From: Klebsiella phage phiKp_32
Sequence record: LC768500.1
Strand: one strand, 5' to 3'
DNA: 64,000 bases
Every line of letters starts with the position of its first letter. Position 1 is the first letter of the stretch. Of this stretch, positions 1 to 33,720 are shown in pieces. Below the pieces are notes generated by a model, which made no database searches, was not told the DNA's origin, and was given only the letters and a program-made list of their open reading frames with translations. Both the position numbers and the translations under genes were made by a program.

Positions 1-2
1 TA

Positions 3-1136
3 TTCGGAACAAAAGTAAAGGATTCTGCCTCAGACACTCCAGGAAGATCCGGAATAAAACTGTATAATTGCGTTAACGTTAGAATCGATAATGTGAACGC
101 CTCTTATATAGGGTGGTATGGTGTAGAGGTTATGGGATGCAGTGAAAACGTAGATGTAAATCGTTTATACGGCGTGGATTGTCGACATACCGTTTCCATG
201 AACTGGATCGAATCTGGTGACCTTTATGGCGGACCTATGTGGGTTTCGGTAAGGAACTCAGCAAGTCACGCTGCAAGATTAAGTGGGTTTGACACTCATG
301 ATCTAGGAAAGGGGATCGCATTTATTAATTGTCAGAGCTTCGATTCCGGCGACGATGGATTCCAAGTAAGGGCGATGGACACCGTTCTAATCGATTGTCA
401 TGCTGAAGGATCGACACTTGATGGGTTCGGCGGAGCTACTGGCGCAAAGAACAGCAAATTAGTAAACTGTTCTTTCAACTACAACGTCAGATACGGAATT
501 AACTTAGGTTATGAAGGTGGTATTGTTATCGACTGTGACGTCGATAATAACGGTTACATGGGGATTTGTACCATCGGCGGACTTATCCAAGGAGGCTCGG
601 TCACCAATAATTATCCGGCTGCTATCGATATAGGTGCCGGATTTAATGCCGCCCAAACCGATCTCAAAATCGATGGTGTTAGAATGCCCTCTTCGACCGC
701 CCAGACAAAAATTTTGAGTTTTGCTGGTGACGCGGTAGCCGCTAACAACAAACCTGAGCTGGTCAGAATGGAAAATTGTTACGTTCCTGGTTACGGAAGA
801 GATTGGGCCCGACTGGTATCGTTCACCGTCCAACCTTTACCTCCGGTGCTTAATAATAATCTACTTACTTCCAGCTTAACCTCCCCTGGAAAAATAAGCG
901 GGCAAGTCCAATTATCTGCAGGGACGGCCACGGTAACAACCACAGAGGTTTTCTCACAACTTGGTAGCGGCGCAAATGTTTTAAAATACTCATCGCAGAT
1001 TAAGTTGAAACCTATCGCTCGTTCTGCCAATATAGGCGCTCATTATGTTTCAGCAATCAACAACGGGACGTCCTTTGTAATCAATTCAACCAATTCCTCG
1101 GATGGCTCGACCATTTATTGGGAAATAACACTTTAA
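3..1136 (+). CDS. Tailspike/tail-fibre protein, C-terminal part (5' end lies upstream of the window); parallel beta-helix repeats
   Basis: Frame 3 is open from the window edge (FGTKVKD...). Beta-helix-like repeats (NCSFNYNVRYGINLGYEGGIVIDCDVDNNGYMG). Terminator hairpin follows. Confidence 0.65.
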   Translation, partial: FGTKVKDSASDTPGRSGIKLYNCVNVRIDNVNASYIGWYGVEVMGCSENVDVNRLYGVDCRHTVSMNWIESGDLYGGPMWVSVRNSASHAARLSGFDTHDLGKGIAFINCQSFDSGDDGFQVRAMDTVLIDCHAEGSTLDGFGGATGAKNSKLVNCSFNYNVRYGINLGYEGGIVIDCDVDNNGYMGICTIGGLIQGGSVTNNYPAAIDIGAGFNAAQTDLKIDGVRMPSSTAQTKILSFAGDAVAANNKPELVRMENCYVPGYGRDWARLVSFTVQPLPPVLNNNLLTSSLTSPGKISGQVQLSAGTATVTTTEVFSQLGSGANVLKYSSQIKLKPIARSANIGAHYVSAINNGTSFVINSTNSSDGSTIYWEITL

Positions 1137-1194
1137 CCTTTGCTGGATGGTGATTGGTCGACGCCGGTCTAAAACTAATTTGTTAGGATCATTT

Positions 1195-1228
1195 AAAATC
1201 CAACCGGTCTTAAGACCGGTTGGATTTT
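1195..1228 (+). terminator. Stem-loop aaaatccaaccggtct/agaccggttggatttt after the tailspike gene
   Basis: Perfect 16-bp inverted repeat followed by a T-run. Confidence 0.6.
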
Positions 1229-1270
1229 ATGCTTACCGATATTTCAACCTTCCTGACCCGAGGAATAGCA

Positions 1271-3502
1271 ATGACTTTACCAACGCAAAAACCTATTCCG
1301 AGTTCATCCATAACTGATCAATTATTTAATGCCGAAAAGATAGATCAGGTTGTTAACTCGGATGAACTAGAATATTCCGATCGTTTCGGAAAGAAACGAT
1401 TCACCTTTTCAGGATTATACAACGTTGTGCAGAATTGGATCAGCAGTTTGGGTTCCAGTTCAGGGGCGTCAGCCGTAGGTCTTAGCCAGGGCGGGACGGT
1501 TCAGGCCGGCCTCTATAACGTTGTTAATGTCGAACAATTTGCTTATCTCAATATTTCAGATGATGATTGGGGTCCGGCTTTTAGAGGGGCCAGGGATAAA
1601 GCAATTGAGATATCGGCTCCGGCGGTTACTTTTAAAGGTCACTACAAAATAAAAGTAAGCTCCGGCCCGACCACTCACACCCTGCCTTTCGACGACGGAA
1701 CTTACGATACAAGAAGAACTGGCGAAGTTCTACTTTCTCCAGAAACCTTGAACACAATGCCTGTGGGATTGGAATGGCCTTCCGGACTCTCCCTGAAATC
1801 AGAAGGGATCGGAAACAACTCAATTACTTTTGATTGGGATAATACCACTGTTGGGTTGTCTCAGGGGATTGGGATCTGTATCAGGGTCAGAAACTGGGAC
1901 GGAACTTATCTTGCTAAGGCCGGCTCAGTTAATCGCATGAATAGCGATATAGCCAATGTGGAGTTTGATGGGTTTAGCGTAAATAACGCCTTTATCGGAA
2001 TACTGGCTGATGGTATCGTGGGATCGGTCAGTTGGGGCAGCCTCCAGTTTAAGAAATGTTTCTTACCTATGACTTGGCAGGGCGCCGACAGATGCACGAT
2101 TAAGAAACTGAGATTTACAGATTGTCCGACTGGATTCTCGGTAGGTGGATGGTGGTTGACCCGTAACGACATCTCAGGATCCAATACCGGGCTGGGGGTT
2201 CCGCCTTATGTTGCTGGAACCGACGTGTACTGCATCGGCTGGATGGACTTCGTTAAAATTGAATCTCTGGAGTATTCTAATAGTACTTCGTTTGACAATT
2301 CCCCGTTGTTTGCCGCGGTAGATACTTTCTTCGACACCTATTTCTACAAAAGCGCGAACAGCGCTAGAACTGCTAGTGGTGGTCGATGCACTAATACAGG
2401 TCCTAACCTAACTAGCGCGAGTACGTTAGCGGCAGATTCTCCGTTCTTAGGTATCGCCGGGCGTGCTCACTCACAAATGGGGCGTTACCACCGAAATCAC
2501 ATCTTGAATGAAATTATTTCTCTCAAGACCTGGGGATGTTTCAGGGCATCGGTCCTTACCACGGCTAATGGAAACTCGGAGCTCAATGTCCCGGGGTGCA
2601 TAGTGGGTACCGCGTACATCGAACAGGCCTGTAAGGTCACGGTTGGCGGTGACGCCACGGTGGGGGGAAGTAATGACTTCGTTACATCAGGTAAAGATGT
2701 TTGGAAAGGGACAAAAACTTATTCTAAGTATTATGCTGGTGAAGGATCCGTAATCGTTAAAGATGGATGGTCTGTTAATAGTTTGGGTTTGTTCCCGTCG
2801 GCGCGGACTGTTGCAAGAAACGATAACGGGTATAATAACAGACTAAGAAGGACAATTGTCGACGATGGTACAGGGAAACCGGTCATACTCGAACAGCTTT
2901 CTGAAACGGTCTATGCGACCCCTCCTCAGAAATTTATTCCCAACGCCGTCGGTTCAGTGGACGATAAGTATTACTGGGTTCAGTTTGAGAAGAACGTTTC
3001 TTCAAAGGCCGCTCTTTATTCTGGTGTTCCGACAACGGCTGCGCAAACACCTATAACAGCTCCGGCGATTAAAGTAATAATGGAACGCCTAGGTAACCGA
3101 GTTAAATTAAAAATTAATTTGGATGCGTCAAATTATGCAGCTGGCGGCAGTAATCCGGTGGTAATCGGATTTACTGGGATTTATAAGCCCATTATTGCTA
3201 CGAGTTCCGATTATGCCCTCGGCGCATACGGCCCGGTGAGACCCATAATGGTCAGCACCAAAACATTTACGGTTACTGATTCTACTTCAGTGAGCCGGAC
3301 GTTTAGGATCGAGCCGGTAGCGCATCAAGCTGGGGTGTTCACTGATGGCGCCGGGGTTAATAACTACTACTTTGTTTTGCTCACCCAGCATCATACTTCT
3401 GACACTAATAGACTGTTGTGGTCGGATTTCACCGGTTCGTTATGTCAGATAGAAATAGAATATGATACGAATGACACTATCACTTCATCCAGCGTATTTT
3501 AA
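1271..3502 (+). CDS. Tailspike / receptor-binding protein with conserved N-terminal anchor module
   Basis: Starts MTLPTQKPIPSS...NSDELEYSDRFGKKRFTFSG after RBS gagga. N-term shared with 5 other genes here; long divergent C-term. The ORF-track start at 1220 is upstream of the conserved start. Confidence 0.8.
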   Translation: MTLPTQKPIPSSSITDQLFNAEKIDQVVNSDELEYSDRFGKKRFTFSGLYNVVQNWISSLGSSSGASAVGLSQGGTVQAGLYNVVNVEQFAYLNISDDDWGPAFRGARDKAIEISAPAVTFKGHYKIKVSSGPTTHTLPFDDGTYDTRRTGEVLLSPETLNTMPVGLEWPSGLSLKSEGIGNNSITFDWDNTTVGLSQGIGICIRVRNWDGTYLAKAGSVNRMNSDIANVEFDGFSVNNAFIGILADGIVGSVSWGSLQFKKCFLPMTWQGADRCTIKKLRFTDCPTGFSVGGWWLTRNDISGSNTGLGVPPYVAGTDVYCIGWMDFVKIESLEYSNSTSFDNSPLFAAVDTFFDTYFYKSANSARTASGGRCTNTGPNLTSASTLAADSPFLGIAGRAHSQMGRYHRNHILNEIISLKTWGCFRASVLTTANGNSELNVPGCIVGTAYIEQACKVTVGGDATVGGSNDFVTSGKDVWKGTKTYSKYYAGEGSVIVKDGWSVNSLGLFPSARTVARNDNGYNNRLRRTIVDDGTGKPVILEQLSETVYATPPQKFIPNAVGSVDDKYYWVQFEKNVSSKAALYSGVPTTAAQTPITAPAIKVIMERLGNRVKLKINLDASNYAAGGSNPVVIGFTGIYKPIIATSSDYALGAYGPVRPIMVSTKTFTVTDSTSVSRTFRIEPVAHQAGVFTDGAGVNNYYFVLLTQHHTSDTNRLLWSDFTGSLCQIEIEYDTNDTITSSSVF

Positions 3503-3517
3503 CATTTAAGGTGTGAT

Positions 3518-5704
3518 ATGACACTCCCAACACAAAACGCCGTTCCTAGTTCAGCTAAGAACGACCAGCTCTTTAATGCTGAGAAGATAGACCAGGTCGT
3601 TAATAGCGACGACCTCCAATATACTGACCGTTTCGGTAAGAAGCGATTTACTTTTACCGGGCTTTACAATATCATCCAGAATTGGATGGGTGGCATTAGT
3701 GGGCTCACCGGAGCAAACAACGTAGGGACGTTATCTGGTCTGTCCGTTCAGTCCGAATTGATTGGAGTACAGTCGGTAGAAGCTTTGCGATCACTTGAAC
3801 CGACTTATACGGATCAGAGAGTAAAGGTTTTGAGATCATCCCCCACCGGGGTTATTTTGAATCACGACGTTTACTATGATTCATCCGATAAAACTTCATC
3901 GGATAACGGATACTCGGTCTTTGTTACTCCCAATGGGAATAGGTGGAAGACCGATATTACCAACGGGTATAACCCATTATTTTTAATAGGGCAGGAAGGG
4001 TACACTGACATATCGTCTGCGATTAACAAAATCGCCTATGATCTGGCGGTACGGTGGGGTAATAATAAAGGCGTAATAGACTTCTGCACCACTATAAGGA
4101 TTCCGGGTAAGTTATTTGGTCAAACACGATATAACGTGACCGGACCTATCCATATCCCGTCGTTCGTTTCCCTAAGCATGGACGTTGACACATACTTTGA
4201 TTACTATACCGTGACTAACACAGACGGGATTATTATCGATAATAGTTATTTCCCGATGCTGTTAGACTCGGCGTACGATCCGTCTACTGCAGCCAGACCA
4301 AGATCAGTCCTATTATGGGAAGCGTCCAGAGAAGTCTTTATTGGCGGGAGACTCATCTTAACCCACCCTATAGGGTCGTCAAGAACATCTAATACCGGAA
4401 TAACGATAGGGAATACCGCTAGCGGATTCATAGATGTCAGAGGGTGTAATTTAAACAATTTTGAATGTTTTGGATTTTATTTCGGGATAAAAATAAATCC
4501 AATTGATGTTTATATCAACTCATTCTCCCGATTCCATTTAGGCCGCAACTATAACGCTGTTGCGGTTTTAGGAGATACAAAGACTAACGCCGGGGAAAAA
4601 TTTAATTTCAGTAACGCCACGATCTCCGATTCAGATTCCGACTTAATTTACATTGAGAATAACGGATTTGAATTGTTCTTTTCTGACGTGTCCTTAGACT
4701 ATCCAACAGGTGATCTAGTAAAAATCACCAAACTCGGTAATGCTTACGTCTCTTTCAATCAGTGCCATATTGAAGGCGTCCAGGGCATGTTAGTGAATGT
4801 AACAGGTTCTACTCTTTTTCCAAAATACGGAAAGAGAATCGTATTTTCGAATTGCATGATTGATATTTCTTCAGGGCAAAGTACCTGGAACAGAACTTGG
4901 TTCTTCTCCTCAACCATCAATACTTTCGTAATGGTGGATAAAACAACCAGGTTCTGGCCATCGACCGCTACGCTCAATTCGAGTAAAACCGCGTATCATT
5001 CTCTTATTAATAACGGTTCTCCAGCAAATAACGCCATTACTTTAGATTACCAATTATCAGACGAAGACCTTATTGACGCATCTACCTTTGTCCTGGGTCA
5101 GTTTAAGCCGGTAGGTGTCAACAAGAGGGTTATAAGTACCAATTCTTATTCCGGTACCGTCGGGAACGCCTACACTGGAGGGAGTTCTTCCACTGATTCT
5201 TGGGGTTGGTATATAGTCAACGGATCGTGGACTTATGCTTCAGCCGATGCATCCGATGGCGATGGTTTGCAGGCGATTTCTTTAACCTCGGACGATGCGA
5301 CTAAAAGCTTTTTCGTAATGTGTTCGCTACCGTGGAACACATTACCTCAAGAGAAATTTAGAGCGCTGGGCGCCATTAAGGTGTATAGCGGGTATACCGG
5401 CTCGGTAAACGTTTCTTGTCTAGTCGAGGCTCATAGTTTGCTGACAATGAACAGTACAGCAGTGGCCGATAATGTGATAGCGACTACTTACAGTCCGGCG
5501 GTAGATGTAGCGGCATTGGCCGCTGCGAATTCCAGGGTCGGTATGTTCCAAGGTTTCTGCACGCAAGCGGCCCAGGTTAACTCATATAGTAATTCTACTC
5601 ACCCGTTACAATTTGTTAGAGTAGGGTTTAAAATAACTGGATTCACTGGAACGATTGAATTGAAGTTACCGACGGTAACCAGTCATAGACTGCTGACAGC
5701 TTAA
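3518..5704 (+). CDS. Tailspike / receptor-binding protein with conserved N-terminal anchor module
   Basis: MTLPTQNAVPSS...NSDDLQYTDRFGKKRFTFTG N-term; beta-helix-like middle region; RBS aagg. Confidence 0.8.
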   Translation: MTLPTQNAVPSSAKNDQLFNAEKIDQVVNSDDLQYTDRFGKKRFTFTGLYNIIQNWMGGISGLTGANNVGTLSGLSVQSELIGVQSVEALRSLEPTYTDQRVKVLRSSPTGVILNHDVYYDSSDKTSSDNGYSVFVTPNGNRWKTDITNGYNPLFLIGQEGYTDISSAINKIAYDLAVRWGNNKGVIDFCTTIRIPGKLFGQTRYNVTGPIHIPSFVSLSMDVDTYFDYYTVTNTDGIIIDNSYFPMLLDSAYDPSTAARPRSVLLWEASREVFIGGRLILTHPIGSSRTSNTGITIGNTASGFIDVRGCNLNNFECFGFYFGIKINPIDVYINSFSRFHLGRNYNAVAVLGDTKTNAGEKFNFSNATISDSDSDLIYIENNGFELFFSDVSLDYPTGDLVKITKLGNAYVSFNQCHIEGVQGMLVNVTGSTLFPKYGKRIVFSNCMIDISSGQSTWNRTWFFSSTINTFVMVDKTTRFWPSTATLNSSKTAYHSLINNGSPANNAITLDYQLSDEDLIDASTFVLGQFKPVGVNKRVISTNSYSGTVGNAYTGGSSSTDSWGWYIVNGSWTYASADASDGDGLQAISLTSDDATKSFFVMCSLPWNTLPQEKFRALGAIKVYSGYTGSVNVSCLVEAHSLLTMNSTAVADNVIATTYSPAVDVAALAAANSRVGMFQGFCTQAAQVNSYSNSTHPLQFVRVGFKITGFTGTIELKLPTVTSHRLLTA

Positions 5705-5855
5705 TCGGCCGCTGGTAGATCGTTTCTTATTCTGGTTAGCCGGCGTCTTCTTCCGTTTACTAGGTTATCGGGCTTTTAAAGGCCCGATAGTTATAATTGA
5801 TGGACGGGTGTAGCGACCGAATCTCTTTAGTCATTTTGGTATTTCAATCATTAAT

Positions 5856-5886
5856 CTAACACCCCGTGTTCAACACGGGGTGTTAG
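5856..5886 (+). other. Perfect hairpin ctaacaccccgtg ttcaa cacggggtgttag between tailspike genes
   Basis: 13-bp inverted repeat; no strong T-run, so it may be regulatory rather than a terminator. Confidence 0.5.
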
Positions 5887-5896
5887 GAGTCTTTCA

Positions 5897-8169
5897 ATGA
5901 CACAGCCAACTAAGAATCCTATTCCCAGTGGGAATATATTAGATCAAATTTTTAACGGGGAAAAGATCGACGAGGTGGTGAACAGCGATAATGAGCAATA
6001 CTCAGACCGTTTCGGTATTAAACGTTTCACAGTAACGGGACTTGCGAAGTTAGTTAAAGATCTTATTGCATCTATCTCCGGTGTGGGTGGCGCGGCTAAC
6101 GTAGGATTGGCTCAGGGAGGAAATATCCAACAGGCGATATCTTATATCACGCCTGAAATGTCAGGAATCGTCACCGGTGTCGGAAATGCGGATGACGACA
6201 CGTCAGCAATACAATGGGCTTTTAATCAAAACCTCCCCATCGTCTTTAACCCTAAAAAGGTTTACCACATAAATCCTGGGGTTATCACTCACGTCGGTGC
6301 TGTAGATGTCAAGGCCTCCACCGCTACCTTTGTTTCTGACGGTCCTGCTTTTGAGATCATAGATTGCGACGGTAGTCAATGGGACGGGGGTATTTTTGTT
6401 TCGCAAACTATTCCGTGGACCGTTGTGTACGATGCCGGGTTCAATGTGATAGAGTCCGGAAGATTGGGGTATGGTAGGATGCCTTATCAGGACAGCGGGG
6501 TCGATCCGAATTTTCTATATCAAAAAATAGCCTGCTCTTTAATTTTTAGATCGTCTGATCAGTCTGTGAAAGACGGACTTCTGGTTAAAAATATTAAAGG
6601 GAGTTACGCTAATATAGTCTGCGCTGGCTTTAAAAATACGGTTTTTGACAATTTAGAGATTAGAGGGGGGCTTTAGGGGCAGCTCTTCTTATCCTTAATG
6701 ATTGCGAACAACCGGTTCTTTCTGGTTTTGGGTGGAATGCGGGGGCGGATACAAGTAAAGGTAATAGTTTTAAATGGGGTAGAGGAACTAATCACATTAT
6801 TAAGAATTCGAAGTTTTTCGAATCCAGACAAATGGGTCTGGCCATTATGGGGTCGGATAATATAATATTATCCGATATTTGGACTTATGACAACGCCGAA
6901 TCCGGAATACAGACCGGTCAATATTCGGCAGCCTACCCCCAAGAATCAATAATTTCCAAACACATAACCCAAAAAGGATGTCTGTCGTGGGGCAACTATT
7001 ACGACGGGTTTGACCACGCCACCGTCACGTCTGGTGCCAACGGTCCTTATTTTGAAAAACACCTGAACATGATTGGTAACCAGGCGTTCAATAATAGAGC
7101 TACTGGGATGGTGGTCCAAGGAAACTTTTTACAAATTAATAATAATGAGTTCTCTGTTAACGGAACACACGGGGTTTCTATAAGAGATTCATCGGTTATA
7201 GATGTTTCCGACAATATCATGTACAAGAACGGAGCGATTTCCGGTGGGTATGGGTTGGTAGTTGTCGGGACCGATAGTTTGATTAAAGACAATACCATTA
7301 TTAACGACGAAACACTTGCAAACTCACATATTGTTAATATTTCCGTGGGTAATCAAGCAAGAAAAATTTTCGATGTTAAATTTATTACCTCCCTAATTTC
7401 AGTTCGTTCTTCCCCTACAATGGTTATTGGAAATGGTGTCGATATATCGTACACCAAAACAACTTCTAATGGAGCGGTTACATCCAGCGGTACAAAATCA
7501 AGTTTGGTTAAAGGGGATTTTGTCGCAGGAAAAACTAACAGTGAGTTTTACGATGATGAGTTTGGCGCTGTTCAGGCTTGGAAGCACCCTTATACCGGGT
7601 CGTATTTAAGATTAGGTCCCCTGGATACAGGCAGAACGACTAACGGGCCTTTTACAATAAGTTACAATAGGGGTAAAAACACAACTGCTCCTACTGGATA
7701 TTCTGATAACACAGGGATAGGGTCCACCGAATTAATATTTAATCCCACGTCGTTTATGCTGAATATCTATGCAGCCAATAGCCCGATAACCCCAGTCGTG
7801 GGTTACTCATTTAATACGACTAGTGTAAGACCAACGATTACCAATTTTGCTACTTTAGGAGAAAACAATTACCGGTTCAAAACTCTATATTTAAACTCCT
7901 TCGTTATTTCAGACTCAGGAATAATCCCTGAACAAACAAATATCGTTGATTTGGGTTCGGGCACAAAACGGATAAGAACAGGTTATTTTAACGCCCTCGA
8001 TCTTAGCACTTCGCCTAAAATAGGGAGTGGTGAAGCGGCGGTTATTGTTCAGCCTCCCGCGACTTCAACTTCGAATGGGACGAAGGGGCAGATTGCTTAT
8101 GATACCTCCTATATTTATTTGTGTGTTTCGGCCAATACCTGGATGAGATCACCATTATCATCTTGGTAA
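5897..8169 (+). CDS. Tailspike / receptor-binding protein interrupted by a frameshift at a G6 tract. N-terminal part 5897-6676 (frame 2); C-terminal beta-helix part open from 6664 (frame 1) to 8169.
   Basis: Conserved N-term MTQPTKNPIPSG...DRFGIKRFTVTG. Frame 2 stops at 6674-6676; frame 1 is open from 6664 and continues as beta-helix sequence. One extra G in 6665-6670 would fuse them into a 757-aa protein. Confidence 0.7.
6665..6670 (+). repeat. G6 homopolymer at the frame junction of the split tailspike
   Basis: agaGGGGGGcttTAG read directly; slippage-prone tract. Confidence 0.9.
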
Positions 8170-8177
8170 TAACATAA

Positions 8178-8220
8178 TTCGATATCTCGACGGATAATCC
8201 GTCGAGATATCGATAATTTT
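8178..8220 (+). terminator. Hairpin ttcgatatctcgacgg ataat ccgtcgagatatcgataatttt
   Basis: Long perfect inverted repeat plus T-run after the tailspike gene. Confidence 0.65.
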
Positions 8221-8287
8221 ATGCTGATCTAAATTCAGTAGACTTGCGCAAGTCTTTTATACTACATTCTTTTAAAGGAGTAACCTC

Positions 8288-10846
8288 GTGGCTACAACTC
8301 CAACTACGGGTGACATCCCCAGCAATGCTGCGGTGGACCTCAAGTTTAACTCGGAACAATTCGACCGAGTAATGAATTCTGACGATCTGACTTATACGGA
8401 TCGTTTTGGTAAAAAACGCATTACAATGAAAGGGGTTCAGGAACTCGCTAATGGCTTCCAGGATACTTTCACCAATCTGTTGGGTTCTCCCGACGGGTTT
8501 AAACTGATCGGCGGAGTAAAGTCTTTTGACACCCTGAGATCAACCCCAGTGAAAACCGAAGGTCAGCGTATTTTCCTCAAGTCTTACTATCAAGATGGAG
8601 TCGACGGCGGTGGGCTCTTCATAGGACACATCGGAACCAAGTTAGATGACTCCGGAACCGTTGCCCAGGGAGTTAACTACTACTGGGAGCGAGTTCTAGG
8701 CGGAATTACACCCACGGTAGAGATGTTCGGTTGCCCTAACAGCACGACTGTTGACGCCGGCCCTTATATCACTTTAGCGCTAGGAGTTGTTGGCGAAGTA
8801 CGTTTACAGGATAGAACGTATTACGTGGACTCGGCGGATATTCCATCGGGCAGCAGGATTGTTTCTTTGGGTGGGGCTGTGATAAGGCCGTTAACCTCCA
8901 ATGCTTCTGCTAAATTTAACCTAGGTTCTGGAAGAGAAAAAATAAGATTTGAGAATATTAAATTCTCTGATCCGGCCGGCCTCGTTACCAGTGAAGACGC
9001 CCTTTTAATAAATGCCGAAAGCATCACCGGATTGACTATTACCAATTGCACCTTTGAAGGTTTAAAGCAGCGTTGTGTTAGAGTTAGAAATGGTTCCGGG
9101 ATAAAAATTACCGATAACAAATTCAGAGGAAGTCTCCCGCATTCTCAATTAAGCGATGAAAGATCCGCTGAGATTTATCTGGTTGACACCCTAGCACACG
9201 TGATCGTCTCTAATAATCAGTTCTATGGGACCGACAGTGGGTTATGGGGGTCTAGAGAAATTGGGGTGTTTGTTCACGCGGTTACGTCAGGGGCGTATTG
9301 GAATGACGTGCATATCGTGTCCAACTACTTCGAAAACTATCGTCGGTTTGGTATAGGCGTGGGAACTCAGGATATAGGAACCCTAGACCAGTTATCAAAA
9401 AATGTATGGATTACCGAAAATACAATTATTAACTCCGGCCAAGAAGGGATCAAAATGAAAGCCGGGTCGATAGTCCATGTTGATAACAACACTGTCGACG
9501 GATTTGAAGGAATAATGGCTGAGGTGCCGGATTCCTTGAACGGCGGAATTTTCATGCAAATTAACGCCGAGTCTACTTGTAACGGCAACCGTATTTATGG
9601 GAAAAATAAGAAGTTATGGTCCGGTGCCGTAACTTCGGCCACTGGTACAACAGTTTCTCTTCCCACAAGTAACTGGACGACATATACGATATCAGCAACC
9701 CAAGGTAGCGGAGTCAGTACCATTGCCGGCAAGTATGTTTATATAAGTTCAGGAACTGGAGTGGGTCAGTGGCGCCGGATTTCTAGCTGGAACAGCACGA
9801 CCAATATGGCTACCGTCAACACCGCATGGACGACCGTTCCGGATACGACCAGCGTGATAGAAGTTTATAGCAACCCCTCCATGGGCATAAAGTATCGCGG
9901 GAATAACACGGGTGGGTCCACCTGGGCCGATAGTAGAACCGCAAGATGCTTCCAAAGCATGAACAACTATGTGGAAGGCTGCGAGGTGGGATTTGGGTTA
10001 TCCGAACCCCTTTTCAATTGCCAATTCGGCTCACTTCATGCCCAGAACTGTAGAGCGATACTAAAAACTTATTCTGGAACGCTGAAAACAACCCGCGGGA
10101 TTCAGTTCTTTGGACTGACGGGCCAGTATCTTGACTACCCGTCCACTGACAACTCATCCGCCATAACCTTTACAGACTGTAGCCAAATCGAAATACATGG
10201 CTTAAAAATTTCTGGAAGTTATTACGATGGGTTGAGGTTATCAAATGTCGACAACTTTAAAATTTTCGGCGGTGTTGTGGAAGGATGCGGGATGGGGGTC
10301 AGCGGTCGTTACGGCCTGGCTATTGCTGGTGGTGTGACTAACTTCGAATCACACGGTGTGACCTACGGCGGGGCCAATGCGGGAGCTGGACAAAGCTACG
10401 CCGCATTTTTCCAGAATACTAATAGCGGAATATCCTTCTTCGGCGGCAGTATGCTGGGTAACGTTGCGGGAGTGTTTAACCCAGGGTCGTCTGGAGCTCT
10501 GTATCCTCCAAGAGATACTGTCTTTAGCGGGGTAGCTGGGGCGGGTCAGATTAAGGGCGTGACTCTCGTAGATAATGCGTCCAAAGTAATTGTCCCCGGT
10601 ACTGATAAAGACACTGTTTTATTTAATACCGCGCTGACCGCGATTAGAACAGTAACTTTCTCCACAGCCTTTGTTGAAGATGGTTGCGTGTACACCATCT
10701 GTAGATCGGCCGCCGCCACGGGGAGTTTTGCTCTCAACGTAGTGACCGCGGTAGGAACACAAGCCCTCGCAGCAGGCTCCTACCTAAGAGTTATTTACTC
10801 GAGTACGCTAGGTTGGATTCCTGTTTCCTACGGTTTATTGAGTTAA
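8288..10846 (+). CDS. Tailspike / receptor-binding protein (852 aa) with conserved N-terminal anchor module, GTG start
   Basis: MATTPTTGDIPSNAAVDLKFNSEQFDRVMNSDDLTYTDRFGKKRITMKG; RBS aaaggag; many beta-helix-type repeats (NNQFYG, ITENTIIN). Confidence 0.8.
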   Translation: MATTPTTGDIPSNAAVDLKFNSEQFDRVMNSDDLTYTDRFGKKRITMKGVQELANGFQDTFTNLLGSPDGFKLIGGVKSFDTLRSTPVKTEGQRIFLKSYYQDGVDGGGLFIGHIGTKLDDSGTVAQGVNYYWERVLGGITPTVEMFGCPNSTTVDAGPYITLALGVVGEVRLQDRTYYVDSADIPSGSRIVSLGGAVIRPLTSNASAKFNLGSGREKIRFENIKFSDPAGLVTSEDALLINAESITGLTITNCTFEGLKQRCVRVRNGSGIKITDNKFRGSLPHSQLSDERSAEIYLVDTLAHVIVSNNQFYGTDSGLWGSREIGVFVHAVTSGAYWNDVHIVSNYFENYRRFGIGVGTQDIGTLDQLSKNVWITENTIINSGQEGIKMKAGSIVHVDNNTVDGFEGIMAEVPDSLNGGIFMQINAESTCNGNRIYGKNKKLWSGAVTSATGTTVSLPTSNWTTYTISATQGSGVSTIAGKYVYISSGTGVGQWRRISSWNSTTNMATVNTAWTTVPDTTSVIEVYSNPSMGIKYRGNNTGGSTWADSRTARCFQSMNNYVEGCEVGFGLSEPLFNCQFGSLHAQNCRAILKTYSGTLKTTRGIQFFGLTGQYLDYPSTDNSSAITFTDCSQIEIHGLKISGSYYDGLRLSNVDNFKIFGGVVEGCGMGVSGRYGLAIAGGVTNFESHGVTYGGANAGAGQSYAAFFQNTNSGISFFGGSMLGNVAGVFNPGSSGALYPPRDTVFSGVAGAGQIKGVTLVDNASKVIVPGTDKDTVLFNTALTAIRTVTFSTAFVEDGCVYTICRSAAATGSFALNVVTAVGTQALAAGSYLRVIYSSTLGWIPVSYGLLS

Positions 10847-10864
10847 TTAATCCAAGAGGGAGAT

Positions 10865-10888
10865 TTAGATCTCCCTCTACCTAAAAGG
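10865..10888 (+). terminator. Hairpin agagggagat ttag atctccctct
   Basis: Perfect 10-bp inverted repeat directly after the stop. Confidence 0.5.
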
Positions 10889-10894
10889 TGAGTT

Positions 10895-12412
10895 ATGACT
10901 ACCCCAACTAATAACAATATACCGAGTAACTCGGTTCAAGACCGATTATTCAACGCAGAAAAATTTGACGAGTTTATCAACTCTAACAACACGTCTTTTA
11001 CAGACCGTCTTGGGATCAGCAGAACGACGTTAAACGGGATTAGACAAAACGTTTCTAATTGGATGACGTCGTTTTCCACTGAAAACGGGGCGGAGAATGT
11101 CGGATATAGAACCTCTAATGTGGGAGATGTTCTTTCCCGTATGAGGACAATGAGTGACTCGGGTCTTCCGCGTCCTTATCTGGGGTATTCTTCGACTAAC
11201 GACCTTGCTATTTTTACAGAGCAGGGCGCTCTTCGCGATACCGATCTTCTTTTGAATGGTTCGATCACCATAGGTAGGAAATTCCGTAGTATTCGCAGGC
11301 ACGCGACCGCATTGAGTTTACGAGGTGGCCGAGCTTCATCAGGAGATACTGGAGTCTTCAATGCTCAGGTTACGGGTGCGCAGAACGCCAGGGGCGTAGC
11401 TGCATATGGGTTGAATGATGGCGTAACATTATTTGCCGACGCCTTAGCTCCAGCACTGGAAGACTGGGAAACAGTTGATACTGCGTCATATACCGCCACG
11501 ACTGTTACGGTCAGCCCATCGGTGTATTCTTCTTTCCTGACCAACGCCCTAGTTGGTGACGTCATTCAGACACTCCACCCCACTAAATGTTGGGGGTTGA
11601 TTACCAGTATAAACAAAACCACTGGTGTGGTGACAGTTGATGAATGGGCGACAGCTGATGGGGCCACTCTAACACCGACTTCGGGCGTGGGGTTCAACGT
11701 CAACCTGATTAATAAAGTTTGGGCTATCAACGCCAACACTATCATTAACAGCAACTCTGCCGCCGATAATGCCGTAATATGCGAATTTGGGGCGGTGATC
11801 AATAAGTCTGGAGCTTCGCTAAACGGTATCGATATTCCGCTGCTCCAACAAAGCCTCTATGATGGTGTGGCTGGCGTACTGGTTCGCCCTGCGAGCACTT
11901 CAGCTAAAACATGGTTGTACGGTGTCCGTTCAACTAATAACAGAATGAACTTCTATGCGTCCGGCGCCACGTATAATAACTACGTATCGACCGGGTCTGC
12001 GCCAGTCGGAATAAGATTTTCTGGAATGCCCACTTATTCGATGGTGTTCAGCAAATCTTCCGATATGACAGATATGTCGTATGTTAACTCGACGATGATT
12101 TACGATGGATACGGTAGACGTCTGCGCAATATGACTAAGTACAGTGTGCTTACGACGAATACAACGCTGAATGCGCTCATTCCTTGTTATCTGATAAATG
12201 CAGCCGGGATAACTCTGACAATGCCGGCTATAAGTAATATGTCTTCAGGTCATTTTTACGAATTGAAGATACTTAGGGCTGGAACATACTATATCACCGC
12301 CAACGCCCAGGAAGTCAACGTAAGTGGTTACGCTACGTACCCTTTAACTGTCACCACCCCAACTAAAGTAGAGGTTTGGTACGATGGATCGACCTGGATA
12401 ATTGTTCCTTAA
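10895..12412 (+). CDS. Tail fibre / receptor-binding protein with conserved N-terminal anchor module
   Basis: MTTPTNNNIPSNSVQDRLFNAEKFDEFINSNNTSFTDRLG; divergent C-term. Confidence 0.75.
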   Translation: MTTPTNNNIPSNSVQDRLFNAEKFDEFINSNNTSFTDRLGISRTTLNGIRQNVSNWMTSFSTENGAENVGYRTSNVGDVLSRMRTMSDSGLPRPYLGYSSTNDLAIFTEQGALRDTDLLLNGSITIGRKFRSIRRHATALSLRGGRASSGDTGVFNAQVTGAQNARGVAAYGLNDGVTLFADALAPALEDWETVDTASYTATTVTVSPSVYSSFLTNALVGDVIQTLHPTKCWGLITSINKTTGVVTVDEWATADGATLTPTSGVGFNVNLINKVWAINANTIINSNSAADNAVICEFGAVINKSGASLNGIDIPLLQQSLYDGVAGVLVRPASTSAKTWLYGVRSTNNRMNFYASGATYNNYVSTGSAPVGIRFSGMPTYSMVFSKSSDMTDMSYVNSTMIYDGYGRRLRNMTKYSVLTTNTTLNALIPCYLINAAGITLTMPAISNMSSGHFYELKILRAGTYYITANAQEVNVSGYATYPLTVTTPTKVEVWYDGSTWIIVP

Positions 12413-12457
12413 CGATTTAACCAATATATGGACCATAAACCCATCTAGGGAAATATC

Positions 12458-12739
12458 ATGTCAGCCGAAAAACAAATTCTTCAACTTCAAGCTCAAATTT
12501 GCCACCTGCGTTTAGAAGGCGCCGAAGCCAAACGATACATCGCCGAGCTCGAATCGATTATCGCTAATAACGAATTGCAGCGTGTATCTATCGAGTTGGG
12601 TCGTATCGAGAAAGCCGAAGGTATGGAGAAAGATACCGCTCGGCAAGAAGAAGACGAGGCGGTGAACAAAGACATCGAAGATATCAAACGCGCAGAACGG
12701 GCTTCAGAAGAAACTCAGGCAGAAGAAGAACAGCAGTAA
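12458..12739 (+). CDS. Acidic coiled-coil hypothetical protein
   Basis: 93-aa ORF rich in E/Q/A heptad-like sequence; RBS gggaaatatcatg. Confidence 0.5.
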   Translation: MSAEKQILQLQAQICHLRLEGAEAKRYIAELESIIANNELQRVSIELGRIEKAEGMEKDTARQEEDEAVNKDIEDIKRAERASEETQAEEEQQ

Positions 12740-12815
12740 ATCCTTATAGTCAGTAGAATTGGGGGTATTTTTTAACTAACGTACCGTAGAGTTTGCCTCC
12801 AGAGCGTACGCTAAA

Positions 12816-13049
12816 TTGGTTAATGTGAAGGTCCGATCTTTTGATTACACTGCCGATATGGGGTTCATTACTCAAGGCTGTAATTTTACAACCGTTACTA
12901 AGTGGGGTTTCCCTCAATTCGGGTCATTTGGTTTGGGTGAGAGGACTCAGCGAATGGATGCGATGGGCGCCGGCGCGGTAGCGGAATACATCAACACAGT
13001 TAATCAGGGTGTGTCGTTCAAAGCTTTAACAACTTACTCCGGGACATAA
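12816..13049 (+). CDS. Hypothetical protein
   Basis: 77-aa ORF in a 380-nt gap; weak support. Confidence 0.3.
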   Translation: MVNVKVRSFDYTADMGFITQGCNFTTVTKWGFPQFGSFGLGERTQRMDAMGAGAVAEYINTVNQGVSFKALTTYSGT

Positions 13050-13120
13050 TTCTAGTTATTTTCTACCCAGCCCTAATGCTATGAAGGTAAGGAGTTAACC
13101 CACACACAGCAGGTACTTAT

Positions 13121-13894
13121 ATGCATAATCGTAGTGTTAAGCGTGCTAACCGCGACGCTCGTCGCGAAGCAAGACGTCAAGATAAGTCCCAAAGTAGCCA
13201 ACTGAAACTGGTGGACAACAATTTCAGTGAAATAAATCTACCTCTTGCAAAAGCTGATCGGAGTAAGATTGAGCCGAAAACCCCAATGCAACAAAAATAT
13301 TGGAATGGGTTACACGCCCACGATGTCGTCATCGGTATTGGTGAAGCGGGTAGCGGTAAAACGTTCCTCCCGACTTGTTACGCTGCAGAACGTCTGCTGG
13401 CTAAAGACGTGGAAAAGATTATCGTTACACGACCAGTCCTACAGGCCGATGAAGATCTGGGTTTTCTCCCCGGGGATGTTAATGAGAAATTCGCACCTTA
13501 CTTCCGACCGGTCTACGATATCTTACTGAAACGCCTGGGTGGTGGAATGCTCAACTATTGCATGAAGCCTGGCGTGGAGAAAGTTGAAGTCGCCCCCTTT
13601 GCTTTTATGAGAGGTCGTACTTTTTCTGACTCAGTGGTGATTCTTGACGAAGCGCAAAACGTTACAGTTATGCAGATGAAAATGTTCATCACTCGTATGG
13701 GTGAGAACACTACGGTAATCATCAACGGCGACCTTACCCAGTGCGATCTTCCTAAAGGAGTTAAATCCGGTCTGGAAGATCTACTGGAGCGCATTGAACG
13801 AGATCCTGAAAATGGATTCCCGATTTATCGTTTCAATGCGGCTGATAGTGTGCGGTCAGATATTTGCTCCAAAGCCCTGAAACTTTATAAGTAA
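13121..13894 (+). CDS. phoH: PhoH-like ATPase
   Basis: Walker A GIGEAGSGKTFL and PhoH-type layout (VILDEAQN, INGDLTQCDL). Confidence 0.85.
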   Translation: MHNRSVKRANRDARREARRQDKSQSSQLKLVDNNFSEINLPLAKADRSKIEPKTPMQQKYWNGLHAHDVVIGIGEAGSGKTFLPTCYAAERLLAKDVEKIIVTRPVLQADEDLGFLPGDVNEKFAPYFRPVYDILLKRLGGGMLNYCMKPGVEKVEVAPFAFMRGRTFSDSVVILDEAQNVTVMQMKMFITRMGENTTVIINGDLTQCDLPKGVKSGLEDLLERIERDPENGFPIYRFNAADSVRSDICSKALKLYK

Positions 13895-13899
13895 ATTCT

Positions 13900-13936
13900 A
13901 ATAACTCCTACTCCCTTATCGGGAGTAGGAGTTATT
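13900..13936 (+). terminator. Hairpin family A: aataactcctactccc ttatc gggagtaggagttatt
   Basis: 16-bp perfect stem plus T-run. Near-identical copies at 24086, 37329 and 62665. Confidence 0.7.
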
Positions 13937-13984
13937 TTAAACGCACCACGGTTATTTATGAACTTTTCATAAGAGACCGTAATC

Positions 13985-14452
13985 ATGAACCTCATGTACG
14001 ATAATTACTACGGAAAAGAAATACTTGGATTGGGTTTAGAGGGTGAAGTCATCACAATGCTAAATTTGGCGATGGCTGATATTAATCACTTCGCTAAGAA
14101 AAGCATTTCTAAAGATATCAACCCCTATCCGTTCAATCTGGAAGATTTTAAGCACAACCGTTTAAACGAACACTACTTCCTCGTTTTTGATGGGAAGAAA
14201 ATAGTGTCGATTCTATCCGTCGTTTACGCTTTAGAGCATCATCTCAAAATAGCTAAAATCTTTAACGTTTATACGTTACCGGAGTATCGCCATAAAGGAC
14301 TTGCTAAACGCAACCTAATCGCCGCTATCGTGTCGGCAAGATCAAATGGGTACATTGTGCAGTTAAACGTTTACAGGTCTAATAAAGCCGCTCAGAAGCT
14401 TTACAAGAGTCTCAAATTTAAACCTGTAGAATACACCATGCAGCTCGGTTAA
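13985..14452 (+). CDS. GNAT-family N-acetyltransferase
   Basis: Motif A region VYTLPEYRHKGLAKRNLIAAIV, typical length. Confidence 0.65.
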   Translation: MNLMYDNYYGKEILGLGLEGEVITMLNLAMADINHFAKKSISKDINPYPFNLEDFKHNRLNEHYFLVFDGKKIVSILSVVYALEHHLKIAKIFNVYTLPEYRHKGLAKRNLIAAIVSARSNGYIVQLNVYRSNKAAQKLYKSLKFKPVEYTMQLG

Positions 14453-14560
14453 TTTTAACTACGTTATCGCCTTATTAGTAATGAAGAGAGAATACATTGT
14501 TTTAAACATCGGTTTGAAATAATACGTTCTCATTTTTAACACTAAGCGAAGGTAAATAAA

Positions 14561-15349
14561 ATGAAAGTAACTAAAGAACAATTGATTGAAGCTTTTAACC
14601 AAACAGTGGAAAAAGAAGAAATTGGTTTCAGTGATGGCAAAGAGAGGCTTAAACTGGTCTTAGACGACCCTAAGATGACCCCTCAGGAATTCGAGAATGT
14701 CGTGGGTTGGCTAACCGAGATCTTTTTCTCAGGAACCAATCTGCTGCATATTAATAACCAAACCTCATTAACAGGTGTTCTTTTCTTAAATAACGTTACA
14801 AGTCATTCCAAAGAACTCATTCTAACTAACTCTAACTTGCATAATACTAGTATTTCGGATAAAGGTCGGTGTGAGATTATTCATTCTAAGTTACAAGAAA
14901 GCTCGATTGCCTCTTATGAGGGAATTGGATCAAAGGTGATTGTTAAGTATAGCGACGTTATTGCCTGCCATTTAAACGGTGTTTTTATCGATCACGCTAT
15001 TGTCGTTTGTAGGGAAATTCGCGAAAGTATCACCCTGGAGAATTGCCATATTGCGCACTCAAGACTCTACTTTGGTCCATGTGAGATAAAAAATAAAAAG
15101 TTCTCGTCAGTTATCATCGACGCGGTTAATTTTACCGGTGATTATTTCTGTATTGGGTTAAATGGAGAAAACGCAGTAGGATATGTCAATGGAACTGAAA
15201 AACTAATTGTGGTGGGCGAAAAGAGATACAATCCCGGCAGTTGGGAAGAACAATTCGTTAATAAAGAACAAAATTTATTCATTAAAATGATGAATCAAAA
15301 GAAATTAGAAATGATGAATATGTTCTTCGATAGTTTGGCGTTTAAATAA
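14561..15349 (+). CDS. Hypothetical protein (262 aa)
   Basis: Long ORF with RBS aaggtaaataaaatg; no recognisable motif. Confidence 0.5.
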   Translation: MKVTKEQLIEAFNQTVEKEEIGFSDGKERLKLVLDDPKMTPQEFENVVGWLTEIFFSGTNLLHINNQTSLTGVLFLNNVTSHSKELILTNSNLHNTSISDKGRCEIIHSKLQESSIASYEGIGSKVIVKYSDVIACHLNGVFIDHAIVVCREIRESITLENCHIAHSRLYFGPCEIKNKKFSSVIIDAVNFTGDYFCIGLNGENAVGYVNGTEKLIVVGEKRYNPGSWEEQFVNKEQNLFIKMMNQKKLEMMNMFFDSLAFK

Positions 15350-15355
15350 TAAAGT

Positions 15356-15390
15356 TTTACTCTACCTCGGTTTCCCGAGGTAGAGTAAAG
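15356..15390. terminator. Bidirectional hairpin ttttactctacctcgg tttcc cgaggtagagtaaag between convergent genes
   Basis: Perfect inverted repeat flanked by A/T runs on both sides. Confidence 0.65.
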
Positions 15391-15486
15391 AGAGCCATCT
15401 GGATTATTAATGTCTAAGGAATATAACCGAGGAACCCAGCAAAAGAAACACCCAAAAATCAGCTAGTGAGTGTTCTATCGTTCTTT

Positions 15487-17295
15487 TTACGCTAATACCC
15501 AGCAAGCTCTAGATGAGTTCCAAATGAATTCATAGGTTCCCGCAGAAGTTAAAGCGACGCTAGTTAACGACCCACCTCCAGGGCCGTAAATTGTATCGGT
15601 CCCGTTAGGGGTTACCGTGTACGTCCCACCTGATAGGATTTTCTTAAATCTTATCATAAACCCTGAACTCAACCCAGTCCCAGACGGAAGGTTGAAAGAT
15701 GAGGCGGCGGAACTCAAACAGTAATAAACGTTACTCAATCCGGTCGTAGGGAAAGTATAACCGGTATTAATTTCAGTATAAGTAACGGATACTTGAGATA
15801 ATCCAGCTAATGAGACTTTACCTGCCGCGAACGTGATTAACTGGGTAGGCGCCGCAGTTCCTGAACCACCCCAGATTCCAGAAGGAGAGAAACTCAATCT
15901 TGGGTAAGCCTCACCCGTCACTTTTAACGAATACATTGCTGTAGCCGTGGACGTAGCTCCCTGTTGAATAGGCTGAACGGCATCCATGACTTTTATGTTA
16001 GCGAATTCGTAGTTTCCTCTGTCAGGGGAATTGGTAATCGCCACCGCGGCGGCGTCAGATGGGGACCCGGTAGCGACGTTATTGGTGAAGTAATCATTAA
16101 CGCCATTCCACATTGTCGAAGAACCTGACGCGAAAGCCATGCAATAAGCTACTCGTGTGCTAGACGTGCCAGTGTTGTAATTGAAATGGGAGTTGGAGGT
16201 AATAATCTTTCTCACGTTACCTGTGAACTTCAGGTTGGCGTAACCATTAGTGGCGATCTCCGCAGCTGCAGACCCCCATCCGTTGGCAAAGAACGTGTTG
16301 GCGATTTGTTCGTGGATTTCAGTACCGCCAGGAGTGTTAAATAAAATCCCTGACTTAGCGTTAGAGTTAACGTGGTTCCTCACCATGCTCGTTACGGTAG
16401 CATTAGGTCCGAATACCACGCCGTTTCCGTTAGACTCGTAAGATTCACTGAGTACCATACGGAAACTTGCACAGTTAGCGTAAATATTATCCGATCCACT
16501 ACGCCCGATAGAAGAAGATAACAATTGCCAATCCGCGCCATTGGCGATATACAAGCAGGTGTTGTAACAGTATAGTATCGAAGAGTATTGCAGATACCCC
16601 ATGTTACGGTTTTTCCCAGCGTAAACGCCGTACCCAGAGAAATTACCAATACCTGAGTTTATCAACTGTACACCGATTGAATAAACACTGGCATCGGCTA
16701 GATATATCGCCGTGAGAGGTCCGCTCGTCGGCGCGTTTAGAGCATAAACCGACCCTGGGTTAGACCAATCCCCCTCAATCCTAATATTTTCAAAAGTAGG
16801 GGAAGCCGACCGGGAACAGTAGAACATGTTACCGGTCGTCCCTGGTTTGGCGGTAATACGAGCTGAACTACGTTTACCAACACCTTCAAAATAAACGTTA
16901 CTGGAAATATTTAAATTCCCAATTATGTAGTTCTTACCCGCGCTAAGTTTTATTCTAGCTGTAGAGGAAGCGTTAATAGCGGCCTGCATGGCTGCTGTAT
17001 CATCAGTTACACCATCGCCCTTTGCCCCATAAGCTTCTGGAACAACGTAGGTCAAGTAATCCTGAACGTGTCCCCCTTGGCTAACGCCGATGTTACCAGC
17101 GCCAGTATTCCCAGTTAGGTTAGAGAAGAAGGTTTGGATAGAGGTTACGATCCCCTTCATTGTGAAACGCTTGGCTCCAAAACGATCGTCGTATGTCTCG
17201 TTATCACTATTAACGATCTCGTCGAGTTTCTCGGTGTTAAACCTCACGTCTATTGCAGTACTACTGGGTATATTATTTTGTGTTGGAGTTGTCAT
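15487..17295 (-). CDS. Tailspike / receptor-binding protein with conserved N-terminal anchor module; inverted relative to the main array
   Basis: MTTPTQNNIPSSTAIDVRFNTEKLDEIVNSDNETYDDRFGAKRFTMKG; RBS ggaggg; Gly/Ser-rich beta-helix-like body. Confidence 0.8.
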   Translation of the reverse strand: MTTPTQNNIPSSTAIDVRFNTEKLDEIVNSDNETYDDRFGAKRFTMKGIVTSIQTFFSNLTGNTGAGNIGVSQGGHVQDYLTYVVPEAYGAKGDGVTDDTAAMQAAINASSTARIKLSAGKNYIIGNLNISSNVYFEGVGKRSSARITAKPGTTGNMFYCSRSASPTFENIRIEGDWSNPGSVYALNAPTSGPLTAIYLADASVYSIGVQLINSGIGNFSGYGVYAGKNRNMGYLQYSSILYCYNTCLYIANGADWQLLSSSIGRSGSDNIYANCASFRMVLSESYESNGNGVVFGPNATVTSMVRNHVNSNAKSGILFNTPGGTEIHEQIANTFFANGWGSAAAEIATNGYANLKFTGNVRKIITSNSHFNYNTGTSSTRVAYCMAFASGSSTMWNGVNDYFTNNVATGSPSDAAAVAITNSPDRGNYEFANIKVMDAVQPIQQGATSTATAMYSLKVTGEAYPRLSFSPSGIWGGSGTAAPTQLITFAAGKVSLAGLSQVSVTYTEINTGYTFPTTGLSNVYYCLSSAASSFNLPSGTGLSSGFMIRFKKILSGGTYTVTPNGTDTIYGPGGGSLTSVALTSAGTYEFIWNSSRACWVLA

Positions 17296-17408
17296 CTCTC
17301 CCTCCGACTATAAAAATTAACGGTCACGCATATTACTATGTATGACGCCTAATGAACCTGGGTCATAAAATTCAACATGATGTTAATCCACGCTATTGAG
17401 GTTTTATT

Positions 17409-22424: not shown

Positions 22425-22641
22425 CGACATCCCCAAGGATAAGAAAGAACCTCTTATTCCTACCACAGCGGTATTACTACCGAAACCCGAGGTTCCTAAA
22501 GGGCTTAATTCTAGCCTGCGCAGTACCGACGGAACGGGGATAGATACCTTCGGTAATTTAGATGGGCGGTCTGGAAAGATCGAAATACTCAACGCTAAGT
22601 ATGCTCATGGAGAATGGTTTACTTGGCCCAACAAATAGGTA

Positions 22642-22797
22642 ATGGTCATGGAAAAGTTAACGGTAATGAAAAATGTTTTTGAGTTAGCAACGGACATTAC
22701 TCCTAAGAGAAAAATACCCGATACTAAAAAGATACTAGAAGCGGGTAAAGATTCTGTCGTTGAATTCATTAACGAATATTTGGAGATGAAGAAATGA
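22642..22797 (+). CDS. Small hypothetical protein (51 aa), stop overlaps the frd start (ATGA)
   Basis: Not in ORF track; read from sequence: MVMEKLTVMKNVFELATDITPKRKIPDTKKILEAGKDSVVEFINEYLEMKK. Confidence 0.35.
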   Translation: MVMEKLTVMKNVFELATDITPKRKIPDTKKILEAGKDSVVEFINEYLEMKK

Positions 22798-24085: not shown

Positions 24086-24120
24086 TAACTCCTACTCCCT
24101 TATGGGAAGTAGGAGTTATA
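24086..24120 (+). terminator. Hairpin family A copy (taactcctactccc ttat gggaagtaggagttata)
   Basis: Near-identical to the 13900 hairpin. Confidence 0.65.
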
Positions 24121-29989: not shown

Positions 29990-30013
29990 TCTATCTTTTT
30001 AGGAATTAACATC

Positions 30014-30262: not shown

Positions 30263-30292
30263 TCGATTCACTACTAATTAAGGAAACAAAAA

Positions 30293-30963: not shown

Positions 30964-30977
30964 CTTTAGGGAATATC

Positions 30978-31430: not shown

Positions 31431-31447
31431 ACCATTTATACTCCTAC

Positions 31448-31479: not shown

Positions 31480-31523
31480 TTATTTTTAGTTATTGAACTT
31501 CTCTTCCCTTTTAAGGATTATCT

Positions 31524-33717: not shown

Positions 33718-33720
33718 TAA

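Follow-up and report, generated by a model that had tools for sequence, protein, structure and literature searches.

Capsule depolymerases set the host range of Klebsiella phages; the attachment of tail fibres in the Chimalliviridae, the nucleus-forming jumbo phages, has been little described. Several described systems can be compared with the array of tailspike genes at positions 1-17295 of a 64,000-nucleotide (nt) stretch of Klebsiella phage phiKp_32 (LC768500.1; the whole stretch is referred to here as the window). The Shigella siphophage Sf11 (Cedarrivervirus; gp13/gp17, PDB 9OCC) and siphophages of ~37-51 kb (Klebsiella, Salmonella, Escherichia, Roufvirus) carry a homologous anchor at the N-terminus of a beta-helix tailspike; their tail is non-contractile, they very rarely have more than one spike gene, and the spike docks on a C-terminal helix of ~30 amino acids (aa) in the distal tail protein. 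Residues 4-59 of Sf11 gp13 were modelled as N-terminal helices; the three gp13 helices of the trimer bundle with a single adaptor helix of the distal tail protein gp17, and salt bridges join gp17 E129/E136/E147/E152 to gp13 R16/K19 (PMC12724387). CBA120 and ViI (Ackermannviridae) likewise have several tailspikes of different specificity on a contractile tail, arranged in CBA120 as a hierarchy of spikes holding spikes, and PhiK64-1, RaK2, and PhiKp24 are likewise jumbo Klebsiella phages with many capsule depolymerases and with hyperbranched fibres.

The phiKp_32 array forms the variable locus for receptor binding in a Miami-like Klebsiella jumbo myophage, and it is a real multi-specificity tailspike locus. 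Unlike the Sf11 type, it belongs to a 250-kb contractile-tailed phage of the nucleus-forming type with seven to nine paralogous anchored spikes in six classes, and no homologue of the distal tail protein is recognizable by hidden Markov model (HMM) search of the related KPN8 genome. Unlike CBA120, it has one anchor type common to all spikes. With the PhiK64-1/RaK2-type apparatus only depolymerase bodies are shared, the phage studied here being a member of the Chimalliviridae with a single anchor module: the gene cut by the window edge is homologous to PhiK64-1 S2-4 (a K1 depolymerase), and the Miami record notes similarity of RaK2_525/RaK2_526 to gp093/gp092 and of a K64-1 tail fibre to gp099. 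Megablast of positions 1-17400 and 30000-50000 gave no DNA match to PhiK64-1, RaK2, or PhiKp24. The explanation as a whole (a Miami-like locus with at least seven Sf11-anchored tailspikes, class-ordered anchors, swapped bodies, and helix docking) is given a probability of about 80%.

The conserved parts of the window are 92%-94% identical (megablast) to Klebsiella phages Miami, KPN8, and YC1, Raoultella phage VB_ZK_P1, and BUCTxx100, whose genomes are ~252-257 kb each. Positions 30000-50000 are collinear with phage Miami at 93.8% identity across 84% of their length, as expected of a Miamivirus, which the taxonomy lookup places in Chimalliviridae. Any one relative covers just 9%-37% of positions 1-17400 (megablast), so this region represents a hypervariable locus inside a conserved backbone. 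The KPN8 annotation includes a tubulin-like protein and split RNA polymerase subunits. Miami-like phages use their own RNA polymerases, and a scan for sigma-70 promoters found sites no more frequent than in shuffled sequence. Two relatives deserve comment. Although the record of BUCTxx100 (OR529409.1) gives Stenotrophomonas maltophilia as the host, this phage shares ~93% identity and the spike locus with the Miami-like phages of Klebsiella, and its host label may deserve checking. SKEH01000004.1, a 252,837-bp sequence in a bacterial assembly (GCA_008916925.1), is a Miami-like jumbo phage genome of complete size; it has at least eight spike genes and also a pair resembling Miami_92/93, in which the second protein (559 aa) has no anchor.

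Six open reading frames (ORFs) begin with a homologous N-terminal module of ~60 aa: those starting at 1271, 3518, 5897, 8288, and 10895 on the plus strand and 15487-17295 on the minus strand. The earlier note had described such a module in seven genes and called for an alignment of the N-termini. This alignment (first ~60-80 aa) revealed 20 invariant columns, 19 of them within residues 1-48 (M1, T2, P4, T5, P10, S11, D16, F19, N20, E22, D25, N29, S30, D37, R38, G40, R43, T45, and G48) plus G65; over 100 aa the others are 34%-57% identical to the first sequence. A module profile matched these six ORFs at E 1e-29 to 1e-37 and nothing elsewhere in the window. For the cut gene, whose N-terminus lies upstream of position 1, the module is not visible in the window; the 377 visible aa are 99.7% identical to KPN8_73, which begins with the module, so a seventh copy probably lies just outside. 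Past residue 95 the six bodies have no significant similarity to one another, the sole match being 43 aa at E 0.004, and the predicted divergence after the module thus stands. Every gene start is preceded by a Shine-Dalgarno-like GAGG, AAGG, or AGGAG, again as the earlier note proposed. Pfam has no family for the module, its PHROGs matches are to unnamed families only (3257, 13362, and 17635), and a word-indexed protein search with it returned short fragments only.

The module is homologous to the tail-binding segment of Sf11 gp13. Its profile matched chain G of 9OCC (the Sf11 tailspike, residues 3-61) at E 4.7e-22, and this is the sole related solved chain in the PDB, the remaining match being a PARP domain at E 0.0085; single modules from the window matched gp13 at E 1e-8 to 9e-11, and identity to Sf11-type anchors is ~45%-55% over 50-60 aa. 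The anchor family is therefore not new, its structure having been published in 2025 (PMC12724387). A distinct anchoring mechanism had been suggested on the grounds that the module differed from the CBA120/ViI N-termini; the difference holds, and the mechanism is probably the one already solved for Sf11. A Pfam scan of all seven proteins (E <= 0.01) found neither Tail_spike_N (PF18668) nor any other N-terminal domain of the CBA120 type, and the anchor is hence not CBA120-like.

An exhaustive HMM search found the module in 1753 cluster representatives. In 150 of the 150 matches listed it lies at the N-terminus or a few residues from it, and most full-length proteins among them have 550-800 aa. 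Nearly all of the 231 phage records that carry it are siphophages of ~37-51 kb with a single copy, and all 38 module loci in IMG/VR are on contigs of <=67 kb. The Miami-like phages have four to nine copies (KPN8, nine; VB_ZK_P1, seven); within the collections searched, the Miami group alone has multiplied the anchor. In RisingSun, which the DNA search gave as the nearest other genus, the syntenic phoH locus is without a spike array. A weak anchor-profile match in RisingSun (22436-22768, minus strand, opposite gp153; E 9e-5, 19 bits) is probably spurious.

These matches bear on a different role for the module, in which the proteins are soluble depolymerases released at lysis and the N-terminal segment serves trimerization or export, not attachment. 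Free depolymerase is known in other Klebsiella phages, and the AlphaFold2 (AF2) monomer model gives the module low confidence. Such a role is nevertheless highly improbable: in the Sf11 virion structure the homologous gp13 segment is seen attached to the tail, and among the matches listed the module is always N-terminal on proteins of tailspike size.

Comparison with the relatives indicates that the anchors are ordered by class. Forty-six modules, taken from seven genomes (the window, KPN8, YC1, Miami, VB_ZK_P1, BUCTxx100, and SKEH01000004.1), group into six classes when clustered at a distance of 0.30-0.35 (A, CD, E, F, G, and H). Their order is invariant in the seven genomes: classes A, CD, E, F, and G come first, phoH, the acetyltransferase gene, and an unknown gene follow, and class H closes the series on the minus strand. 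The inverted cassette beyond phoH, the GNAT gene, and the unknown gene, pointed out from the window alone, is thus confirmed, and all six relatives keep the layout, having the same locus, anchor classes, and gene order as the window; Miami has neither class CD nor class E. Class CD comprises two subtypes conserved across phages, 'SSSIT' and 'SSAKN/SSTKN'. Class-specific residues lie at positions ~12-18 and align with gp13 R16 and K19, the adaptor contacts in Sf11, and may set docking specificity. The KPN8_74 protein in GenBank (9271-11502 of the KPN8 locus extracted) lacks the anchor that its DNA encodes, since the annotation begins the gene 59 codons late.

Within a class, the anchor and a neck of 20-120 aa are conserved, and the bodies differ between Miami-like phages. 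The 8288 gene is 94% identical to Miami_94 over 136 aa, with nothing beyond; its N-terminal 136-182 aa are common to Miami_94, KPN8_77, and YC1_173, which have different bodies. Conversely, the body of the 3518 protein is 100% identical to that of a SKEH01000004 spike with a different anchor, and bodies ~70% identical to it occur in Klebsiella prophage spikes behind P22-type Head_binding (PF09008) or CBA120-TSP1-type Tail_spike_N (PF18668) domains. Altogether this body has 62 homologues, mostly in Klebsiella genomes, behind other anchor types. Because class-mates differ in body and identical bodies differ in anchor, these pairs are direct evidence of exchange at the anchor-body junction, and they bear out the cassette swapping on a common anchor suggested from the window. 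KPN8, YC1, and Miami lack the bodies of the 3518, 5897, 8288, and 17295 (minus-strand) genes. Near-identical counterparts of window spikes are found in KPN8 (two genes) and YC1 (one gene).

The bodies of six of the seven proteins, with the 10895 protein apart, are beta-helical or depolymerase-like by sequence or model comparison and may be enzymes; the capsules they act on would differ from body to body. The cut-gene body matches K1-capsule lyases (PDB 9k4a, E 1e-87; 7w1c, E 9e-62), has a Pfam Beta_helix domain and K1-lyase_C at E 7e-22, and would be expected to act on K1 capsule. The 1271 body matches the KN1-specific depolymerase 9m4c/9m4d (E 1e-21), and the gene is 97.5% identical to KPN8_74. 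For the 3518 protein, an AF2 model with a predicted local distance difference test score (pLDDT) of 74.4 has as its best Foldseek match in the PDB the Klebsiella K2-2 tailspike protein (TSP) 8iq5 (E 2e-16, template modelling score 0.70), followed by Kp7 gp52 and CBA120 TSP2/4, whose bodies it resembles. Pfam Beta_helix was identified in the 8288 body, behind a Depo32/DpK2-like neck, and at residues 297-468 of the joined 5897 protein, downstream of its frame break. The minus-strand 17295 protein contains Pect-lyase_RHGA_epim; its N-terminal part resembles phi92 gp150 (E 1.6e-9) and matches 9occ at E 1e-8. The 10895 protein is 100% identical to YC1_172. Its body has two homologues among 5.8e9 proteins and no match in Pfam and PDB searches, and its AF2 model (3-sequence alignment) reached a pLDDT of 41, from which no conclusion on the fold was drawn; of the seven proteins it is the least likely to be an enzyme. 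The suggestion of beta-helix and depolymerase bodies is thus supported for six of the seven.

Five of the six genes that the earlier note took to be complete are intact. The frame of the sixth, the 5897 gene, ends at a stop past a G6 run and resumes in the -1 frame as an ORF at 6832-8169; one G added at the run gives a single protein. Eight phages have intact tailspikes to which a 433-aa query across the break aligned in one piece (98%-100% of the query). Positions 1200-13502 of the window recur at 100% identity (12,303 bp, 0 mismatches), G6 included, in an independent Logan assembly of run DRR406566, so the break is not an artefact of one assembler. Both halves are otherwise free of stops and ~58%-60% identical to working tailspikes; from this it is concluded that the break arose recently, that it is an error at the level of the reads, or that slippage bypasses it. 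A programmed -1 frameshift was considered for A-GGG-GGG-C; the site is non-canonical when compared with the X-XXY-YYZ heptamer.

The break raises the question of whether the array is partly decayed, some of its genes being relics or unexpressed, the 5897 gene a pseudogene, and the arsenal smaller than the gene count. Its recurrence in the Logan assembly and the lack of a Shine-Dalgarno sequence at the downstream ATG (6832) are consistent with decay, which we regard as possible, with the odds somewhat against it, given that the remaining genes are intact with a ribosome-binding site at each and that the two halves of the 5897 gene have kept both their frames and their likeness to working spikes. 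The preferred explanation remains a working array of anchored spikes.

In that explanation each spike would consist of the ~60-aa anchor, a short neck, and a polysaccharide-depolymerase body of its own, and would presumably be a trimer by analogy with trimeric Sf11 gp13. Each would dock as gp13 does, in a four-helix bundle, on a helix of a baseplate or tail protein that appears to be encoded outside the window. Recombination just past the anchor or neck swaps bodies between phages and prophages, and so may re-target the virion to other capsule types.

In the siphophages the distal tail protein has the adaptor helix at its C-terminal end (...WLDEVVNRELPQ); the protein stops two residues past the helix in YX3973 and pYD38-A and five past it in PSTNGR2lys; the Sf11-type acidic motif is ...LDEVVNRELPQ. 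HMMs of the distal tail protein and adaptor helix found nothing significant in the window, the relatives' arrays, or the whole KPN8 genome. The C-terminus of KPN8_39, a tail protein of 1071 aa from the structural block KPN8_35-39, was a weak match of the adaptor-helix HMM, at rank 6, and the protein was picked through it. It ends in six tandem acidic repeats of 18-19 aa (residues ~960-1071; consensus ..DLD.I.NQ..PE..). The pattern D..[IVLM]N..[ILMWQ]P[EDQS], partly tuned with both sets of sequences already seen, has six matches in the six-frame translation of KPN8 (268,417 residues), all of them KPN8_39 repeats; three in the 62,616 residues of four siphophage loci, each falling exactly on an adaptor helix (Sf11, YX3973, and pYD38-A); and none in the window and the relatives' arrays. 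When an HMM of the repeats was run against the siphophage loci, the best single-domain match was the pYD38-A adaptor helix and the third best the YX3973 helix. Alignment of the repeat and adaptor profiles by hhalign gave P 2.6e-4 and a score of 16.8; the scores of 200 column-shuffled controls averaged 7.5 and reached at most 14.8. RisingSun gp101 aligns to KPN8_39 residues 15-955 and then has a different C-terminal domain. KPN8_37, 38, and 39 are consecutive large tail proteins and, since all share PHROG 3573, paralogues.

We tentatively suggest, at odds well short of even, that the KPN8_39 orthologue, encoded outside the window, has become a docking strip in which the repeats have taken the place of the C-terminal domain and each of the six adaptor-like repeats is addressed by one of the six anchor classes. 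The equality of the two numbers is suggestive; the Sf11 helix may equal two repeats. If the suggestion is correct, the protein would be an addressable plug-board holding at least six different depolymerases per fibre, with bodies exchangeable through recombination. A dependence of repeat number on spike number was considered and rejected, because the repeat tail is 98%-100% conserved in all six Miami-like phages, which have from four to nine anchored spikes.

That constancy of the candidate docking tail would also suit competition among the spikes, in which spikes that belong to one class (such as 1271 and 3518) contend for a single site out of a limited set, giving mosaic particles or a bet-hedging population. 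The window has class CD twice, KPN8 likewise duplicates classes A, CD, and G, and the two classes missing from Miami point the same way, whereas the recurrent CD subtypes could address different sites. Competition of this kind appears less likely than not, and docking of all the spikes through their anchors is the arrangement we favour.

Several observations weigh against the explanation as a whole. No fold was recognizable for the 10895 body by Pfam, PDB, or AF2; one of the spike genes (5897) is frame-broken; the AF2 monomer model of the 3518 protein gives the anchor a pLDDT of 34-54; and the whole KPN8 genome contains no secure homologue of the Sf11 adaptor helix (HMM search; best 2.8 bits). 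Virion proteomics or a structure for any Miami-like phage was not found in the literature searched, and co-display of all spikes on one virion, which the explanation would imply, is for that reason unproven; the branched apparatus proposed in the earlier note is likewise conjectural.

The features of the locus are listed in Table 1. Strong hairpins follow five of the seven gene ends: those of the cut gene, 3518 (two hairpins), 5897/6832, 8288 (~10855-10878), and the minus-strand gene. The idea of a separate terminator for each gene fails for 1271, which is separated from 3518 by only 15 nt, and for 10895, after which the scan found no strong hairpin.

Table 1. Features at positions 1-17295 of the window
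Feature	Positions	Strand	Remarks
Class-A tailspike, 3' part, 377 aa	1-1136	+	K1-capsule-lyase-like beta-helix
Terminator-like hairpin	1194-1226	+	16-bp stem then TTTTAT; after cut gene
Tailspike, 743 aa, class CD, subtype 'SSSIT'	1271-3502	+	N-module ~1271-1450
Tailspike, 728 aa, class CD, subtype 'SSAKN'	3518-5704	+	N-module ~3518-3697
Tailspike, class E, joined 757 aa	5897-8169	+	N-module ~5897-6076; split 5897-6676 / 6832-8169
G6 homopolymer, frame-break site	6665-6670	+	TAG stop at 6674-6676
Terminator-like hairpin	8179-8213	+	16-bp stem; after 5897/6832 gene
Tailspike, 852 aa, class F	8288-10846	+	GTG start; N-module ~8288-8470; Depo32/DpK2-like neck, then beta-helix
Spike or fibre, 505 aa, class G	10895-12412	+	N-module ~10895-11074
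Acidic coiled-coil ORF, 93 aa	12458-12739	+	Travels with 10895 gene
phoH	13121-13894	+	Conserved spacer between array and class-H spike
Acetyltransferase gene (GNAT)	13985-14452	+	Conserved spacer
Unknown gene, 262 aa	14561-15349	+	Conserved spacer
Bidirectional terminator-like hairpin	15356-15389	.	15-bp stem; between convergent genes
Tailspike, 602 aa, class H	15487-17295	-	N-module ~17116-17295; pectate-lyase-like beta-helix

The 93-aa ORF has a counterpart of the same length at the same place in YC1, behind the identical 10895 homologue; Pfam and PHROG searches gave no match for it, and a role as partner or chaperone to the 10895 spike is conceivable. Between this ORF and phoH lies an unusually long intergenic region (12740-13120, 381 nt) with a strong predicted fold (-96.7 kcal/mol), within which the Logan annotation places a 74-aa gene. 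A perfect 34-nt hairpin, TAACTCCTACTCCCTTATCGGGAGTAGGAGTTAT, occurs four times in the window (13902-13935, 24086-24119, 37330-37363, and 62666-62699), with three exact copies and one with two mismatches, the chance expectation being 0. The sequence is also present in the Vibrio jumbo phage phiKT1019. Since the first copy directly follows phoH, the hairpin is probably a reused terminator.

Neither the Miami-group records nor the literature searched describes the shared anchor or the spike architecture; likewise undescribed there, it appears, are the candidate docking strip and the way in which a jumbo phage of the Chimalliviridae has multiplied the anchor into six classes of fixed order. Seven to nine spikes on one small, solved anchor, with six conserved address classes, provide a concrete model of assembly that can be tested, and the junctions at residues ~60-180 offer defined points at which depolymerase bodies could be swapped in the engineering of therapeutic phages. 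The findings show that a siphophage anchor has been recruited and multiplied in an unrelated contractile-tailed lineage, whose spikes resemble exchangeable plug-in modules that would determine the range of bacteria open to attack by the phage.

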